Below, in pieces: positions 13,685 through 19,280 of a DNA stretch of 64,000 nt. The stretch's first letter is position 1, and the number at the start of each line of letters is the position of its first letter. The DNA lies in the NCBI RefSeq assembly GCF_988242995.1, contig NZ_OZ547043.1; one strand, written 5' to 3'. The translations under genes and the position numbers were made by a program. Below the pieces are notes generated by a model that had not been told where the DNA came from, made no database searches, and was given only the letters and a program-made list of their open reading frames with translations.

Positions 13685-14893
13685 TTAAAGGGAGCCATGC
13701 GCCTCACGCAACATTTTCTGCTCTGGCTGACGAATCGTCGTAGAGAGCGCCAGTGACAGAATCAGCAGGGCGAAAATCACGTAGAAGGTCACATAGAAGC
13801 CGCCAAACAGTGAGGCGATAATCGACCCACAAATGCTGCCGATACCGAAACCGAGATAAATCACACCGTAGTTTTTCGCCAGGTTATTGAGGCCGAAGAA
13901 CTCACTGACCAGTGACGGGAACACCGTGATAGTGCCGCCAAAGTTAAACGCCACGCAGGCAATCGCTGCAAAGAACGTCACTGCATTCAATGGTGCAAAC
14001 AGCAGGGCCGCCATACCCACCAGCGAAATCACCTGACCAATGGTGATAACACGGATTCGGGCGATTTTGTCAGACAGTATCCCCAGAACCAGACGGCCTG
14101 AAAGGTTGGCGATGGAAATAACAGTGACTGCATTGGCTGCGGAAACCACATCAAGGTGTGCCAGACTTTGGGCGATATCTTTCGCTACCCCAATCACGTA
14201 CAGGCCGCTCATGCAGGCAGTCAGGAACATTACCGCTAACATCCAGTACTGCGGTTTACGCATCGACTCTGCCAGCGTGTAATCTTTCTCCACGACACCA
14301 TTGCTGGTTTTCACTTCCTGTTTTGGTGCGTCTTTCATTAACGTTGCGCCGAAAACAATCATCACCAGCGCAATCGCTCCCCAAATCACAAAAGTTTTTT
14401 CCAGACCCACCGTTTCCAGCAGCTGCGTGTCGATAAATTTGAACCCCAGGCTACCCAGACCATAAGAACCGATAGCGAACGCGGAGATCAGACCTTTACG
14501 CTCCGGGAACCACTTCACGCAGTTAGAGAGCGTCAGCAGGTAACCCGCGCCATCCGCCAGACCGACCAGCACACCGGCGCTTAACCACAGCATCATCAGG
14601 TTGTCAGAATGCGCTGTCAGGAAGAAGCCTAATCCCAGCAAAATGCCGGAAGCCATAGTGACGCGTTTAACGCCAAAACGTTCCTGTAATTTCCCCGCAA
14701 CAGAAGATGAAATTGCCAGCCCCAGACTTAACAAGCCGAAAGAGAAAGCGACCTGGCTTACCGGCGCATCCAGCTTGGCAGAAAGCGCGCCGTTAAACAG
14801 GCTCCAGGTATAAACCGACCCAAGGGCAAACTGGGTAATGATAGTACCGATGAGTGTCAACCAGCGGGTACGCTGATAATTTGAAGGTGTCAT
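13685..14893 (-). CDS. yhjX: MFS transporter YhjX (oxalate/formate antiporter-like), 402 aa
   Basis: 12-TM MFS ORF; start trimmed from 14938 to ATG (plus-strand cat 14891-14893; MTPSNYQRTRW...). Confidence 0.88.
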   Translation of the reverse strand: MTPSNYQRTRWLTLIGTIITQFALGSVYTWSLFNGALSAKLDAPVSQVAFSFGLLSLGLAISSSVAGKLQERFGVKRVTMASGILLGLGFFLTAHSDNLMMLWLSAGVLVGLADGAGYLLTLSNCVKWFPERKGLISAFAIGSYGLGSLGFKFIDTQLLETVGLEKTFVIWGAIALVMIVFGATLMKDAPKQEVKTSNGVVEKDYTLAESMRKPQYWMLAVMFLTACMSGLYVIGVAKDIAQSLAHLDVVSAANAVTVISIANLSGRLVLGILSDKIARIRVITIGQVISLVGMAALLFAPLNAVTFFAAIACVAFNFGGTITVFPSLVSEFFGLNNLAKNYGVIYLGFGIGSICGSIIASLFGGFYVTFYVIFALLILSLALSTTIRQPEQKMLREAHGSL

Positions 14894-15121
14894 GGCAGTA
14901 TTCCTGCAGTAATAAAAAGGAAAAATCTCTGCTGACAACCATAACGAAGTGCACTTTATGCCTGGGGAAAAACGGCATGAAATGCCATCAGAACGGAATG
15001 AAATGCATTAGTTCAGGAATGAATGACTCGACAATTATTCACCAAATTTATTATTTAGTAAGTTAGCACCCACTATCGCCACAACTGTTGTTATTCAATG
15101 GTTTCAATTGTATCTATAACG

Positions 15122-15820
15122 TTAAAATCTGGCGCTAACCCCCATCGTATACAGATAGTCGCTATTGTTAGTGGTATTTTCTGCCTGAGATAGCGCAGCA
15201 TAGGCAGCAATATTTTGATTGAGCAACATATCAGCGCCTACGGTGACATCCAGCCAGTTGCCGTTCTGGTTTGTCGCCGTCATCCGGCTCAGGCCTGATT
15301 GCGCCTTCCAGATATTCTCGCCAAATTGCTGGTTATAGCTGATTTGCGCCCAGGGTCGGAGATCGCCAAGCCGGGAGTCAACACGCCAGCCTAAGGTACT
15401 CACGCTGGCATGCCATAACGGATCGGCCAGCGTGGTAGTACTGTCGCCAAACTCGTTATACATCGAGGTGGTTGTGCCATCGTAATGTAATGCCGCGACC
15501 GGGCCGGTTGTAACCTGCTCATATAAAGGAAAATTCCAGCCCATACTCATACTGCTGGTCACATCCACAGGAGTTTCTTCCGCCAGATTGACTTCCAGTC
15601 CCAGCGCCCTTTGGCTACTTTGAATACGTTGCGACAAAATATCGTTGTAATCAGGTTGATGGTCACTATCCCAGGTGTAACGCTCTGTGGAATGTCCGGG
15701 TTGCGTATCAACGATATATTCTTGTTGCCAGGCGTAAGCTGTGTTGAGAAAAAAGGCACTGATTACCACACTCGCCAGCAGGCTTAGCTGCCAGCGACCA
15801 CCGCTTTTTTTTATGATCAT
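15122..15820 (-). CDS. yhjY: Outer-membrane beta-barrel protein YhjY (autotransporter beta-domain-like, no passenger), 232 aa
   Basis: Signal peptide then beta-strand-rich sequence ending in aromatic C-terminal residue (...VSARF); ATG at plus-strand cat 15818-15820. Confidence 0.8.
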   Translation of the reverse strand: MIIKKSGGRWQLSLLASVVISAFFLNTAYAWQQEYIVDTQPGHSTERYTWDSDHQPDYNDILSQRIQSSQRALGLEVNLAEETPVDVTSSMSMGWNFPLYEQVTTGPVAALHYDGTTTSMYNEFGDSTTTLADPLWHASVSTLGWRVDSRLGDLRPWAQISYNQQFGENIWKAQSGLSRMTATNQNGNWLDVTVGADMLLNQNIAAYAALSQAENTTNNSDYLYTMGVSARF

Positions 15821-15977
15821 TAACACGACTCCAGGGAAGAGCCGAATTCGGCAATATTATTGTCATTGTATGAAGGATATCGGGCATAGTAGCCCTGTAT
15901 TAAATATTGACTTTTTCACCGATGCGTCAAGAAAAGCGGCTGAAATTTTTACGATCGGGTACATAGCGAGGGAAAGT

Positions 15978-16541
15978 ATGGAACGTTGCGGCTGGGTGAG
16001 TCAGGACCCGCTTTATATTGCCTACCATGATAATGAATGGGGCGTGCCTGAAACTGACAGTAAAAAACTGTTCGAAATGATCTGCCTTGAAGGGCAGCAG
16101 GCTGGGTTATCGTGGATCACCGTCCTCAAAAAACGCGAAAACTATCGCGCCAGCTTTCATCAGTTCGATCCGGTGAAGGTGGCTGCAATGCAGGAAGAGG
16201 ATGTCGAAAGACTGGTACAGGACGCCGGGATTATCCGCCATCGCGGGAAAATTCAGGCAATTATTGGTAATGCGCGGGCGTACCTGCAAATGGAACAGAA
16301 CGGCGAACCGTTTGCCGACTTTGTCTGGTCGTTTGTCAATCATCAACCACAGGTGACACAAGCCACAACGTTGAGCGAAATCCCTACATCTACGCCCGCC
16401 TCCGACGCTCTATCTAAAGCCCTGAAAAAGCGTGGTTTTAAGTTTGTTGGTACCACAATCTGTTACTCCTTTATGCAGGCATGTGGGCTGGTGAATGATC
16501 ATGTGGTTGGCTGCTGTTGCTATCCGGGAAATAAACCATGA
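15978..16541 (+). CDS. tag: DNA-3-methyladenine glycosylase I (Tag), 187 aa
   Basis: Start trimmed from 15741 to ATG at 15978 (MERCGWVSQDPLYIAYHDNEWGVP...); Cys-rich zinc-binding C-terminus. Confidence 0.92.
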   Translation: MERCGWVSQDPLYIAYHDNEWGVPETDSKKLFEMICLEGQQAGLSWITVLKKRENYRASFHQFDPVKVAAMQEEDVERLVQDAGIIRHRGKIQAIIGNARAYLQMEQNGEPFADFVWSFVNHQPQVTQATTLSEIPTSTPASDALSKALKKRGFKFVGTTICYSFMQACGLVNDHVVGCCCYPGNKP

Positions 16542-16978
16542 TTCGGGAAGCGCAACGTTCAGAACTCCCCGCGATCCTCGAACTGTGGCTGGAAAGTACA
16601 ACCTGGGGGCATCCCTTTATAAAAGCGAATTACTGGCGTGATTGCATTCCGCTGGTGCGGGATGCCTATCTTGCCAACGCGCAAAACTGGGTCTGGGAAG
16701 AAGACGGTAAGTTTCTCGGTTTTGTCAGCATTATGGAAGGCCGATTTCTGGCTGCAATGTTTGTCGCACCGAAGGCCGTCAGACGCGGTATTGGTAAGGC
16801 GCTGATGCAGTATGTGCAGCAGCGCCATCCCCATCTGATGCTGGAGGTTTATCAAAAAAATCAACCGGCGATAGATTTCTACCATGCGCAGGGTTTTCAC
16901 ATTGTCGACTGCGCATGGCAGGATGAAACCCAACTACCCACCTGGATTATGAGCTGGCCGGTGGTTCAAACGCTGTAA
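16538..16978 (+). CDS. yiaC: GNAT-family N-acetyltransferase YiaC
   Basis: 146-aa ORF with acetyl-CoA-binding motif (RRGIGKALM); ATG overlaps tag stop; 3' end overlaps bisC 3' end. Confidence 0.88.
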
Positions 16979-19280
16979 GTGTCAGTTCCGGACCGTTGTA
17001 TTTTTCCAGCCATGCCAGCGCCGTATTACCCGCACAGCCATTCCCCAGCCGCGAGCTGGGGAGATCTTTGGTCAGAACGTTCACCGCGCCGTTTTTACAA
17101 ATACCGTCAGCGGTTAAATCCAGATCCGGCCAAGCCCCTTCATGAATACAAATCACGCCAGGTTTAATTCCCTCGCTAATGACCGCTCCGGCAAGAATTT
17201 GCCCGCGTGCGTTCCACAACCGAACAATATCGCCATCTTGTATGCCGCGCGCCTGGGCATCGTCAGGATGAATGGTGACAGGCTCACGATTTGCCACCGC
17301 GTACAATTCGCGCAGAGAACTGTAATTCAGCTGGCTGTGCAGACGATGTGCCGGATGAGCAGAAAGTACCTGCAACTGTTCCGGTTCGGCATTGCCCTGC
17401 CATTCGTCCGGCTCCAGCCACATTGGATGCCCAGGGCAATCCGGATAAGCGTAATCGGCAATACGCTGCGAGAAGATTTCAATCTTGCCGCTGGCGGTTT
17501 TTAATGGATGCGCCTGCGGATCGCGGCGAAAATCGGCGAAGCGAATAAACCGCTCGCTGTCCGGGTTTTCCGGCATCTCAATTAACTGGTTGGCTTGCCA
17601 GAACTCAGCAAATGGCGGCAATTCAACCTGCTGGCTTGCCCCGCGCTGCCGGGCAACGTTATAAAACGTTTCCAGCCATTGCAGCTCACTTTTTCCTTCC
17701 GTAAACCGCGCATAGCCGCCCTTCTCCCAACGTTCACTCAACTCGGCAAAGACATCAAAATCATTACGCGCTTCATAACGTGGCGGCACCACTTGTTTCA
17801 TCGGCACCAGATGCTGATTGCTGTAATCGCCGGTCATGGTGAGATCATTACGCTCAAACGAAGTGGTCGCAGGCAGAACGATATCCGCGTGTTTCGCCGC
17901 AGCCGTCCAGAAACATTCGGAGATAACCACCAGTTCCGGTTTTTGCCAGGCACGGATCAGGCGATTGGTATCCTGATGATGAGTAAAGTTGGCACCGCCC
18001 GCCCACCAGATAAAACGAATATCCGGGAAATGTCGGTTCATACCGTTGTGTTGATATGCGCCACCAGGGTTTTCCAGTGCTTCAACAATGCGGGCAACAG
18101 GGATTTTATCTACCGCATCGGTGCCGCCAGGCAAGCTGCCCTGCATGGAAGAGAGCACCGCAGAACGCCGCGTGGGGTTACCACCATTGGCAAAATGATA
18201 AGAAAGACCAAAACCGCCGCCGGGTGTGCCGATTTGCCCCAACATTGCCGCCAGCGTGACGATCATCCAATGTTTTTGCTCACCAAACTGTTGACGCTGC
18301 ATTCCCCAGCCAGCCATCAGCATGGTCGTGTTTTGGTGGAAAAGAGCCGCCAGCTCGCGGATTTTCTCTGCGTTAACCCCACAAATCCCTGCCGCCCATT
18401 CGGCGGTTTTGGCTATTCCGTCACTCTCGCCCAGCAAATAAGAGGCGAAGACGGCATAACCGGTGGTGCAACGCGCCAGAAACGCTTCGTCGTGCCAACC
18501 ATTTTCCACCAACGTATGGGCGATCCCCAGCATCAGCGCAACATCGGTGCCCATGTGCGGTGCCACCCACTCCATTTTATCGCCAAAGAAATCGACGGTT
18601 TCCGATCGCATTGGATCAATGCAGATCAGCTTTTTCCCGCTGTCACGCAGTGCGGAAAAGTAAGAAAGCCCCTGCTCATCGGATGCATTCCAAGCAATTT
18701 TCAGCGTATTGAGTGGATTAGCACTCCACAGCACCACAACATCGCTATGTTCCAGCACCAGCGGCCAACTGGTTTGCTGTTGATAAACTTCGCTGCCACC
18801 CACGACATACGGCATGATCGCCTGTGCCGCGCCGGTCGAATAATCCCCCAGATGCCCGGTATAACCGCCTGCCAGCGCCATATAGCGTTGTAATAATGTC
18901 GAGGCCTTATGCAGCACGCCGTTTGAACGCCAGCCGTAGGAACCAGCAAAAATCGATGCCGGACCATAAGCCTCACGAATGCGTTTATGTTGTTGGTGAA
19001 TAAGCTCCAGCGCCTCATCCCAACTCACACGAACAAATTCATCCTGCCCGCGAATGCCTTGCGGTTTTTCCGGTGACGCAAGAAAGCCTTTGCGCACCAT
19101 TGGAAATCGTACCCGCGTATTGCTGTGAACCTGGTCGCGAACCGCGCTCTGCAAGGAGTTTTCCATTCCTGTGACTAACGCGCCACGCGAGCTAAACACG
19201 GTTTCGCCGTCGGTTTCAACCAGCATCGGCCCCCAGTGGGCGGCAGTCAGAACGGAATATCGTGAGGATGAGTTGGCCAA
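16947..19280 (-). CDS. bisC: Biotin sulfoxide reductase BisC (molybdopterin oxidoreductase), 777 aa
   Basis: 777-aa DMSO-reductase-family ORF; first codon is TTG (plus-strand caa at 19278-19280) so a non-ATG start is implied. Confidence 0.9.

Follow-up and report, generated by a model that had tools for sequence, protein, structure and literature searches.

The gene yhjY, which is carried in the databases under names that refer to autotransporters or lipases, encodes a protein of 232 amino acids (aa). It was analysed in a stretch of 64,000 nucleotides (contig NZ_OZ547043.1 of the RefSeq assembly GCF_988242995.1; hereafter the window), in which the open reading frame (ORF) originally predicted at positions 15122-15820 was confirmed on the minus strand. 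Its sequence indicates that YhjY is no autotransporter and no lipase but probably a small outer-membrane protein (OMP), kept by selection. The best overall explanation, to which a probability of about 0.55 is assigned, is that an esterase autotransporter underwent an internal deletion and became a small 8-stranded OMP. The origin of yhjY by internal deletion of an esterase autotransporter is held with high confidence; the proposed fold, a small 8-stranded barrel, is put forward tentatively.

Homology of YhjY to both ends of esterase autotransporters

A profile search over 1.84 billion representative proteins recovered only 127 related clusters: short forms (~210-240 aa), a large number of fragments and some ten long proteins. 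The long proteins (600-715 aa, mostly ~660-700 aa) match the YhjY profile at their extreme C-termini only. The best long match, P0132 from Winslowiella (665 aa, E-value 1.8e-52), carries a Lipase_GDSL domain at residues 35-348 and a complete Autotransporter domain at residues 396-643. BLASTP aligned residues 1-66 of YhjY with residues 1-69 of this protein (E-value 5e-7) and residues 57-232 with residues 486-665 (40% identity, E-value 9e-41), the two segments being collinear. The part of P0132 between them, from residue ~70 to residue ~495, is without a counterpart in YhjY and holds the remaining esterase domain, the linker helix and barrel strands 1-5, the strands being counted as amphipathic segments in the alignment of the long forms. 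As YhjY is homologous to both ends of P0132 and not to its middle, it is regarded as an internally deleted GDSL-esterase autotransporter.

The autotransporter beta-domain PF03797 is the sole Pfam match to YhjY at an E-value of 1 or lower. It aligns residues 88-209 with profile positions 119-253 of 255, whereas the long forms match positions 2-254; the NCBIfam model TIGR01414 aligns residues 88-232 with positions 285-432 of 432. Going by these profile alignments, YhjY holds only the C-terminal half, approximately, of a 12-strand domain, and the stand-alone beta-barrel domain of the original prediction is not borne out. The barrel of EstA, an esterase autotransporter of Pseudomonas aeruginosa, has 12 strands, and the seven strands retained in YhjY would be strands 6-12 of such a 12-strand ancestor. 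Among solved structures, EstA comes closest to the long form (PDB 3KVN, E-value 1e-34); searches of the PDB sequences with YhjY or the YhjY profile gave no match even at an E-value of 10 or lower.

Residues 31-87 match no family, and residues 31-70 are among the best conserved parts of YhjY. In a family alignment of 30 orthologues W31 is nearly invariant, and Q32, Q33, E34, Y35, R47, Y48, W50, D51, P56, Y58, L62, R65 and I66 are invariant. The helix predicted at residues 58-68 corresponds by homology to the esterase domain's first helix and not to the linker; the pore-spanning linker region of the long forms (P0132 ~350-385) falls within the segment missing from YhjY. It had been supposed earlier that the signal peptide is followed directly by a beta-strand-rich region, with no passenger domain. 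Residues 31-70 are instead a conserved, non-barrel and esterase-homologous stretch, so that a passenger relic of ~40 residues persists.

The two termini agree with what had been predicted. The signal peptide is of the typical Sec type, with an n-region containing K4, K5 and R9, a hydrophobic core (LSLLASVVISAFFL) and a c-region in which A-Y-A precedes W31. It aligns with that of the full-length relatives, which carry A-S-A before a W at the matching position, and the AlphaFold2 (AF2) model described below has a helix at residues 9-25; the mature protein would comprise 202 aa. The C-terminal sequence YTMGVSARF, with its aromatic last residue, fits the beta-signal of outer-membrane barrels: Y224, G227, V228, S229, A230 and F232 are invariant in an alignment of 30 family sequences (alignment A1), and the full-length relatives end similarly in ...LGVSARF.

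The residues on which esterase activity would depend have been lost. The GDSL lipase family PF00657 gives no match in YhjY even at an E-value of 1 or lower. Where the long-form sequence A-S-A/WDQLYVFGDSLSDSGNNGRYTWDGSTHPLYDDILAEKI lines up with A-Y-A/WQQEYIVDTQPGHSTE--RYTWDSDHQPDYNDILSQRI of YhjY, the block I motif FGDSLSD of the long forms P0132, P0150, P0162 and P0166 stands opposite VDTQPGH, and SGNH blocks II, III and V, with the oxyanion Gly and Asn and the catalytic Asp-x-x-His, belong to the region without a YhjY counterpart (P0132 ~70-348). Both catalytic hallmarks of SGNH esterases are accordingly missing from the YhjY sequence.

It was considered whether the deletion arose by recombination across two copies of a YDDI motif in the long form (P0132 61-64 and 487-490). 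This was rejected: the short-form sequence ILAE[KR]I matches the N-terminal copy, which places the deletion junction after I69 of P0132. A derivation of the extra ~25 residues of the Pantoea short forms from the linker start LDAPAQV was likewise rejected, as BLAST gave no significant match.

Locus, selection and expression of yhjY

A comparison with full-length autotransporters at the same locus, which had been suggested as a check, proved informative: in relatives, a GDSL-esterase autotransporter of about 660 aa lies beside tag. The Winslowiella gene for P0132 is divergent from a gene with the PF03352 (Tag) domain, beyond which lie yiaD and a LacI/PfkB cluster, with dnaT-dnaC on the other side. 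A Pantoea short form of 231 aa (P0301) occupies the same slot, with the same neighbours. A Serratia homologue of ~650 residues, which covers residues 16-665 of P0132, is also divergent and adjoins tag-yiaC-yiaD; it is broken over three frames in error-rich long-read assemblies. A genome scan with a narrower alignment matched 206 species, of which the best 80 were examined. All 80 of these Enterobacteriaceae loci carry the short form in the arrangement bisC-yiaC-tag<->yhjY, and in almost all of them yhjX-eptB comes next. Since the best 80 of the 206 all carry short forms, only a few loci show how widely the long form occurs next to tag. The long forms of P. ananatis (P0150) and Xenorhabdus (P0162) were considered as representatives of the ancestral state and rejected; as they are located away from the tag locus, they are treated as paralogues. 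At the tag locus, the ancestral gene encoded an esterase autotransporter of full length, from which the short form is derived.

Of the two alternatives left by the original prediction, a minimal OMP or an autotransporter remnant, the second is strongly supported by the same-locus relatives of 660 aa and the two-end alignment. It would be wrong to call the remnant a pseudogene, since strong purifying selection acts on the short form. Orthologous ORFs of 226-237 aa are intact in all 80 Enterobacteriaceae species. For the mature protein, the ratio of nonsynonymous to synonymous substitution rates (dN/dS) amounts to 0.07 in the comparison with E. albertii (dS 0.70) and to 0.05-0.08 in those with Salmonella and Citrobacter; the barrel part has values of 0.03-0.06. 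Constraint on the mature protein is weakest at the junction (residues 71-87); for residues 71-90, dN/dS is 0.35-0.95 in most comparisons and 0.09 against E. albertii.

Shortened yhjY products of 146-185 aa with 97-99% identity occur in sizeable clusters (P0064, P0066, P0081, P0090 and P0105), one of which is named partial and comes from Shigella flexneri. The gene, though conserved elsewhere, thus seems to have been inactivated in particular lineages, namely in Shigella and some E. coli. Forms still shorter than YhjY are seen in Klebsiella (P0128 cluster, 193-214 aa) and Cronobacter (P0127 cluster, 209-212 aa). Here the trimming has gone further, in the long external loop that joins strands 3 and 4 and in part of the junction segment; many of these forms are named 'lipase' by their sources, the enzyme domain being missing.

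Published data on expression place yhjY among the RpoS-controlled genes of O157:H7, with a tabulated value of 55 (PMC2907692), and among those induced at the growth transition (PMC2241611). From TRIC-seq data, the sigmaE-dependent small RNA (sRNA) RybB is reported to contact the yhjY mRNA in the cell, alongside ompA, ompC, ompW and bamA (bioRxiv 10.1101/2025.09.11.675593). A sequence complementary to the RybB 5' seed lies within the signal-peptide codons (Table 1) and forms a duplex of 12 bp at -17.5 kcal/mol, a value reached by 0.4% of 500 shuffles. The CAGUGGY core recurs in the orthologues, and 60 of the 80 pair with RybB at -12 kcal/mol or better. The yhjY mRNA thus appears to be a RybB target like other OMP mRNAs. 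On account of the RpoS and growth-transition expression, the RybB contact and the seed match, the cell appears to treat yhjY as an OMP gene. No yhjY phenotype was found in the literature searched.

A synonymous mutation in yhjY, S21S (codon 21, 15758-15760), lies ~35 nt downstream of the RybB-complementary site. It was reported in 5 of 12 populations that evolved independently during compensation of rifampicin resistance, with no measurable fitness effect (bioRxiv 10.1101/2023.01.13.524028). Its recurrence may be due to a mutational hotspot, to a variant present from the outset or to an influence on the mRNA or its regulation within the signal-peptide codons.

Predicted fold and competing explanations

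Structure prediction with AF2 employed an alignment (A5) of 123 sequences, comprising 113 short forms (<88% identity) and 10 long forms trimmed to the homologous parts; with the 30 close orthologues alone, the predicted local distance difference test score (pLDDT) was 35. The model from A5 has a mean pLDDT of 66 and a predicted template-modelling score (pTM) of 0.52, with values of 88-91 in the strand cores. It contains helix 58-68 and eight strands (74-79, 88-100, 103-114, 138-149, 154-166, 188-199, 205-215 and 222-231), of which strand 74-79 has a pLDDT of ~73. The predicted connections alternate between 2-5 and 6-23 residues, the usual OMP pattern, with short periplasmic turns at 101-102, 150-153 and 200-204 and external loops at 80-87, 115-137, 167-187 and 216-221. 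From this topology, with the C-terminus in the periplasm, residues 31-70 would be periplasmic. Outer-membrane localisation is supported indirectly by the signal peptide, the beta-signal, the RybB targeting and the inclusion of YhjY in a curated K-12 'OMP-ome' (PMC7383365). The pairing of strand 1 with strand 8 was addressed by mean-field covariation over 270 short forms (effective number of sequences 64). This analysis was dominated by gap artefacts, did not recover the known neighbouring strands and is uninformative.

The explanation favoured here may be outlined as follows. In an ancestor of the Enterobacterales, a GDSL-esterase autotransporter gene of the EstA/ApeE/Lip-1 type, of which yhjY is the positional orthologue, was divergent from tag. 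An in-frame internal deletion of ~425 codons removed nearly all of the esterase, the pore-spanning linker helix and strands 1-5, and fused the signal peptide and ~40 N-terminal esterase residues to the last seven strands. The product is predicted to be exported by Sec and cleaved after A30, and its intact C-terminal beta-signal would be recognised by the beta-barrel assembly machinery (BAM). It may then be inserted as an antiparallel sheet of eight strands, joined by short turns on the periplasmic side and by long loops on the outside; seven of the strands would be inherited and one recruited from the junction (residues ~72-80). The conserved residues 31-70, including helix 58-68, would stay in the periplasm and may have acquired a new role. 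The protein would be produced in stationary phase under RpoS and repressed by RybB during envelope stress.

Several observations weigh against this explanation. The AF2 sheet superposes better on 12-stranded than on closed 8-stranded barrels; Foldseek TM-scores are ~0.35, and the model is unlike a canonical closed 8-stranded barrel. The model would thus be an open arc with the curvature of a 12-stranded barrel, a geometry which may have been inherited from the network's autotransporter prior. The closed barrel expected by the original prediction is therefore left ambiguous, with a leaning towards refutation: the eight strands speak for it and the better fit to 12-stranded barrels against it. 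The AF2 model itself is only moderate, as its pLDDT and pTM values indicate, and a 'deformed or broken' I-TASSER barrel was reported for YhjY by Horne et al. 2020 (PMC7383365). The candidate strand 1 (residues 72-80, LGLEVNL) is short, weakly amphipathic across the family and located in the fastest-evolving segment. The number of deletion events is a further difficulty. A neighbour-joining tree (without support values) puts all short forms together, whereas the Pantoea short forms have 48-50% identity to the Winslowiella long form and 40-42% to E. coli YhjY, share the MLQK... signal peptide of Winslowiella and have lost a different part of the N-terminal relic. Tree and identities point opposite ways, and there may have been one deletion or two.

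The same structural observations invite the alternative that YhjY is part of a multi-chain or hybrid barrel, in which the sheet of 7-8 strands closes with other YhjY copies or with another barrel protein and the N-terminal segment mediates assembly. This is considered unlikely, though it accounts for the 12-stranded rather than closed 8-stranded curvature of the AF2 sheet, for the I-TASSER barrel, which is likewise broken (PMC7383365), and for the odd number of seven inherited strands next to a weak and poorly constrained eighth, as well as giving a function to an N-terminal relic that is strongly conserved and has no obvious role in a monomer. The argument from curvature is indirect, and may reflect the autotransporter prior and the ten long-form rows of the alignment; moreover, eight strands at the curvature of a 12-stranded barrel do not tile into a whole number of copies. 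To our knowledge, there is no example of an OMP protomer with 7-8 strands taking part in a shared barrel. In the trimeric (type Vc) autotransporters, three chains of four strands each build one 12-stranded barrel; they are a precedent for a partial-barrel type V chain and are relevant to the oligomeric alternative only, as YhjY differs from them in having 7-8 strands and not four and in lacking a coiled-coil stalk or passenger, and a sequence relationship was not detected. The specific form of this alternative, a natural partial barrel in a multi-chain or hybrid assembly with the esterase-derived N-terminal segment as an assembly or plug element, is more doubtful still.

The remaining explanations are much less probable. 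YhjY might be a functionless relic, an annotated ORF left by a deletion that inactivated the autotransporter gene and contributing nothing to the cell. Every feature that defined the function of the ancestor has been lost, shortened copies of 146-176 aa occur in Shigella and some E. coli (P0064, P0066, P0081 and P0090), and the literature searched offers no phenotype. This is nevertheless improbable: in 80 of 80 species, from many genera, the ORF is intact and hardly varies in length, dN/dS is 0.05-0.08 with dS near saturation, both retained pieces contain invariant residues, and expression is regulated, with a conserved sRNA target site. That YhjY is a complete, stand-alone 12-stranded translocator without a passenger, as its database name 'autotransporter beta-barrel domain-containing protein' implies, agrees with the significant PF03797 and TIGR01414 matches and the C-terminal beta-signal. 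It is very improbable, as these matches span only the C-terminal half of the models, the relatives need ~250 residues for the domain (396-643 in P0132) where YhjY has 145 homologous ones, the segment for strands 1-5 and the linker helix is missing, and the AF2 strands number eight and not 12. An active (phospho)lipase or esterase, finally, deserves almost no credence: it derives from the legacy names 'putative lipase', 'Lipase 1' and 'lipase [Cronobacter]' and from homology to Photorhabdus Lip-1 (PMC6637259), which sits in the barrel and not in the enzyme domain, while PF00657 is not matched, block I has changed from FGDSLSD to VDTQPGH and the remaining SGNH blocks fall in the ~425 deleted residues.

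Gene features, related systems and implications

The coordinates of the features are collected in Table 1. The start of yhjY is taken to be the ATG at 15820 and not the in-frame GTG at 15826, because the spacing of the Shine-Dalgarno sequence suits the ATG only; the GTG is only 2 nt away from GGAG. The window is chromosomal DNA of Escherichia coli. Bases 14000-17000 of the window are matched in 5420 of 5426 complete E. coli genomes with 95-99.6% identity, so that yhjY is present in these 5420, and the RefSeq order over this region in E. coli is yhjX, yhjY, tag, yiaC, bisC. A scan of the yhjY flanks for promoters and terminators gave nothing above chance.

Table 1. Positions of yhjY and its predicted features in the window
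Feature	Position	Strand	Details	Basis
yhjY coding sequence	15122..15820	minus	232 codons and TAA stop (15122-15124)	ORF list, translation, RefSeq annotation in E. coli
Shine-Dalgarno GGAG	15829..15832	minus	8 nt upstream of the ATG at 15820	read from sequence
Sec signal peptide, residues 1-30	15731..15820	minus	predicted cleavage A-Y-A/W31	sequence features, alignment with long forms, AF2
RybB 5' seed-complementary sequence	15796..15809	minus	mRNA +12 to +25, within signal-peptide codons	
Esterase-passenger relic, residues 31-70	15611..15730	minus	WQQEYIV...RYTWDSDHQPDYNDILSQRI	BLASTP, alignments, AF2 helix 58-68
Deletion junction and putative recruited first strand, residues 71-87	15560..15610	minus	RALGLEVNLAEETPVDV	between the two BLAST segments; AF2 strand
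C-terminal half (approximately) of beta-domain, residues 88-232	15125..15559	minus	seven predicted strands (probably ancestral 6-12)	PF03797, TIGR01414, BLASTP, AF2
C-terminal beta-signal for BAM, residues 224-232	15125..15151	minus	YTMGVSARF	invariance in alignment A1

The start of tag is an ATG at 15978, 157 bp from that of yhjY, and the two divergent genes therefore share a short control region. On its other side, tag overlaps yiaC by 4 bases (ATGA, 16538-16541), an arrangement that points to translational coupling. The yiaC and bisC ORFs, which converge, share 32 bases at their 3' ends (16947-16978). Two subspecies of Salmonella enterica, arizonae (L016) and diarizonae (L030), lack yhjX, and eptB follows ~230 bp after the yhjY stop. 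In a Xenorhabdus locus (L089, 5001-11877), three tandem genes for GDSL-type autotransporters of 695, 719 and 651 aa lie downstream of prs, the middle copy having only a faint lipase-domain match; the esterase autotransporter family seems to have expanded locally here. A locus titled Chryseobacterium sp. 18061 (L079) has the order bisC-yiaC-tag-yhjY-yhjX-eptB, which is typical of Enterobacteriaceae, with layout and identities close to those of 'Citrobacter sp. 18056' (L077), and a Serratia-like autotransporter fragment (P0338) is listed under the name of Levilactobacillus brevis. The source assemblies of both are probably mislabelled or contaminated.

Among known systems, the nearest are the GDSL-lipase type Va autotransporters, which include EstA (PDB 3KVN), Salmonella ApeE and Photorhabdus Lip-1 and form 'Group 6' of a published classification (PMC9289746). 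YhjY is a homologue and a positional orthologue of the group members of the Winslowiella/Serratia type (~660 aa). It shares with the long forms the cleavage context, the first ~40 mature residues, the last seven strands and the ...GVSARF ending, and differs from EstA-type proteins in being without the catalytic Ser motif, ~90% of the esterase domain, the alpha-helical linker and strands 1-5. Of five features of type Va systems, the signal peptide and the beta-signal are present in YhjY, and the other three, namely passenger, linker and 12-strand barrel, are missing. Since these parts are missing, YhjY is not expected to translocate or display a passenger or to act as an esterase. Its mature size and even predicted strand count resemble those of the OmpA N-domain, OmpX, OmpW, PagP and NspA; it also has the short turns, long external loops and C-terminal aromatic beta-signal of small 8-stranded OMPs, and is, like ompA and ompW, apparently under RybB control. 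Unlike these proteins, it belongs to none of the corresponding Pfam families, its AF2 model fits them less well than 12-stranded barrels, and it carries a conserved N-terminal extension of 40 residues of other origin.

The gene and its partial domain match are already known from databases. The deletion origin, the passenger relic, the positional orthology and the purifying selection on a half-barrel were not found in the searchable literature. The analysis corrects the 'autotransporter' and 'lipase' annotations of a core E. coli gene, and explains the 'broken barrel' modelled earlier, as the sequence holds only about half of the ancestral barrel. For the physiology of E. coli, it adds a further uncharacterised envelope protein under RpoS and apparent RybB control. 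That strong purifying selection has retained an internally deleted autotransporter in many genera implies that the remnant acquired a new function. For studies on the folding and evolution of OMPs, yhjY offers a tractable natural case of a change from 12 strands to 7-8, with full-length orthologues at the same locus; if the multi-chain alternative were true, it would reveal a novel mode of outer-membrane barrel construction and serve as a natural experiment on strand-number change.

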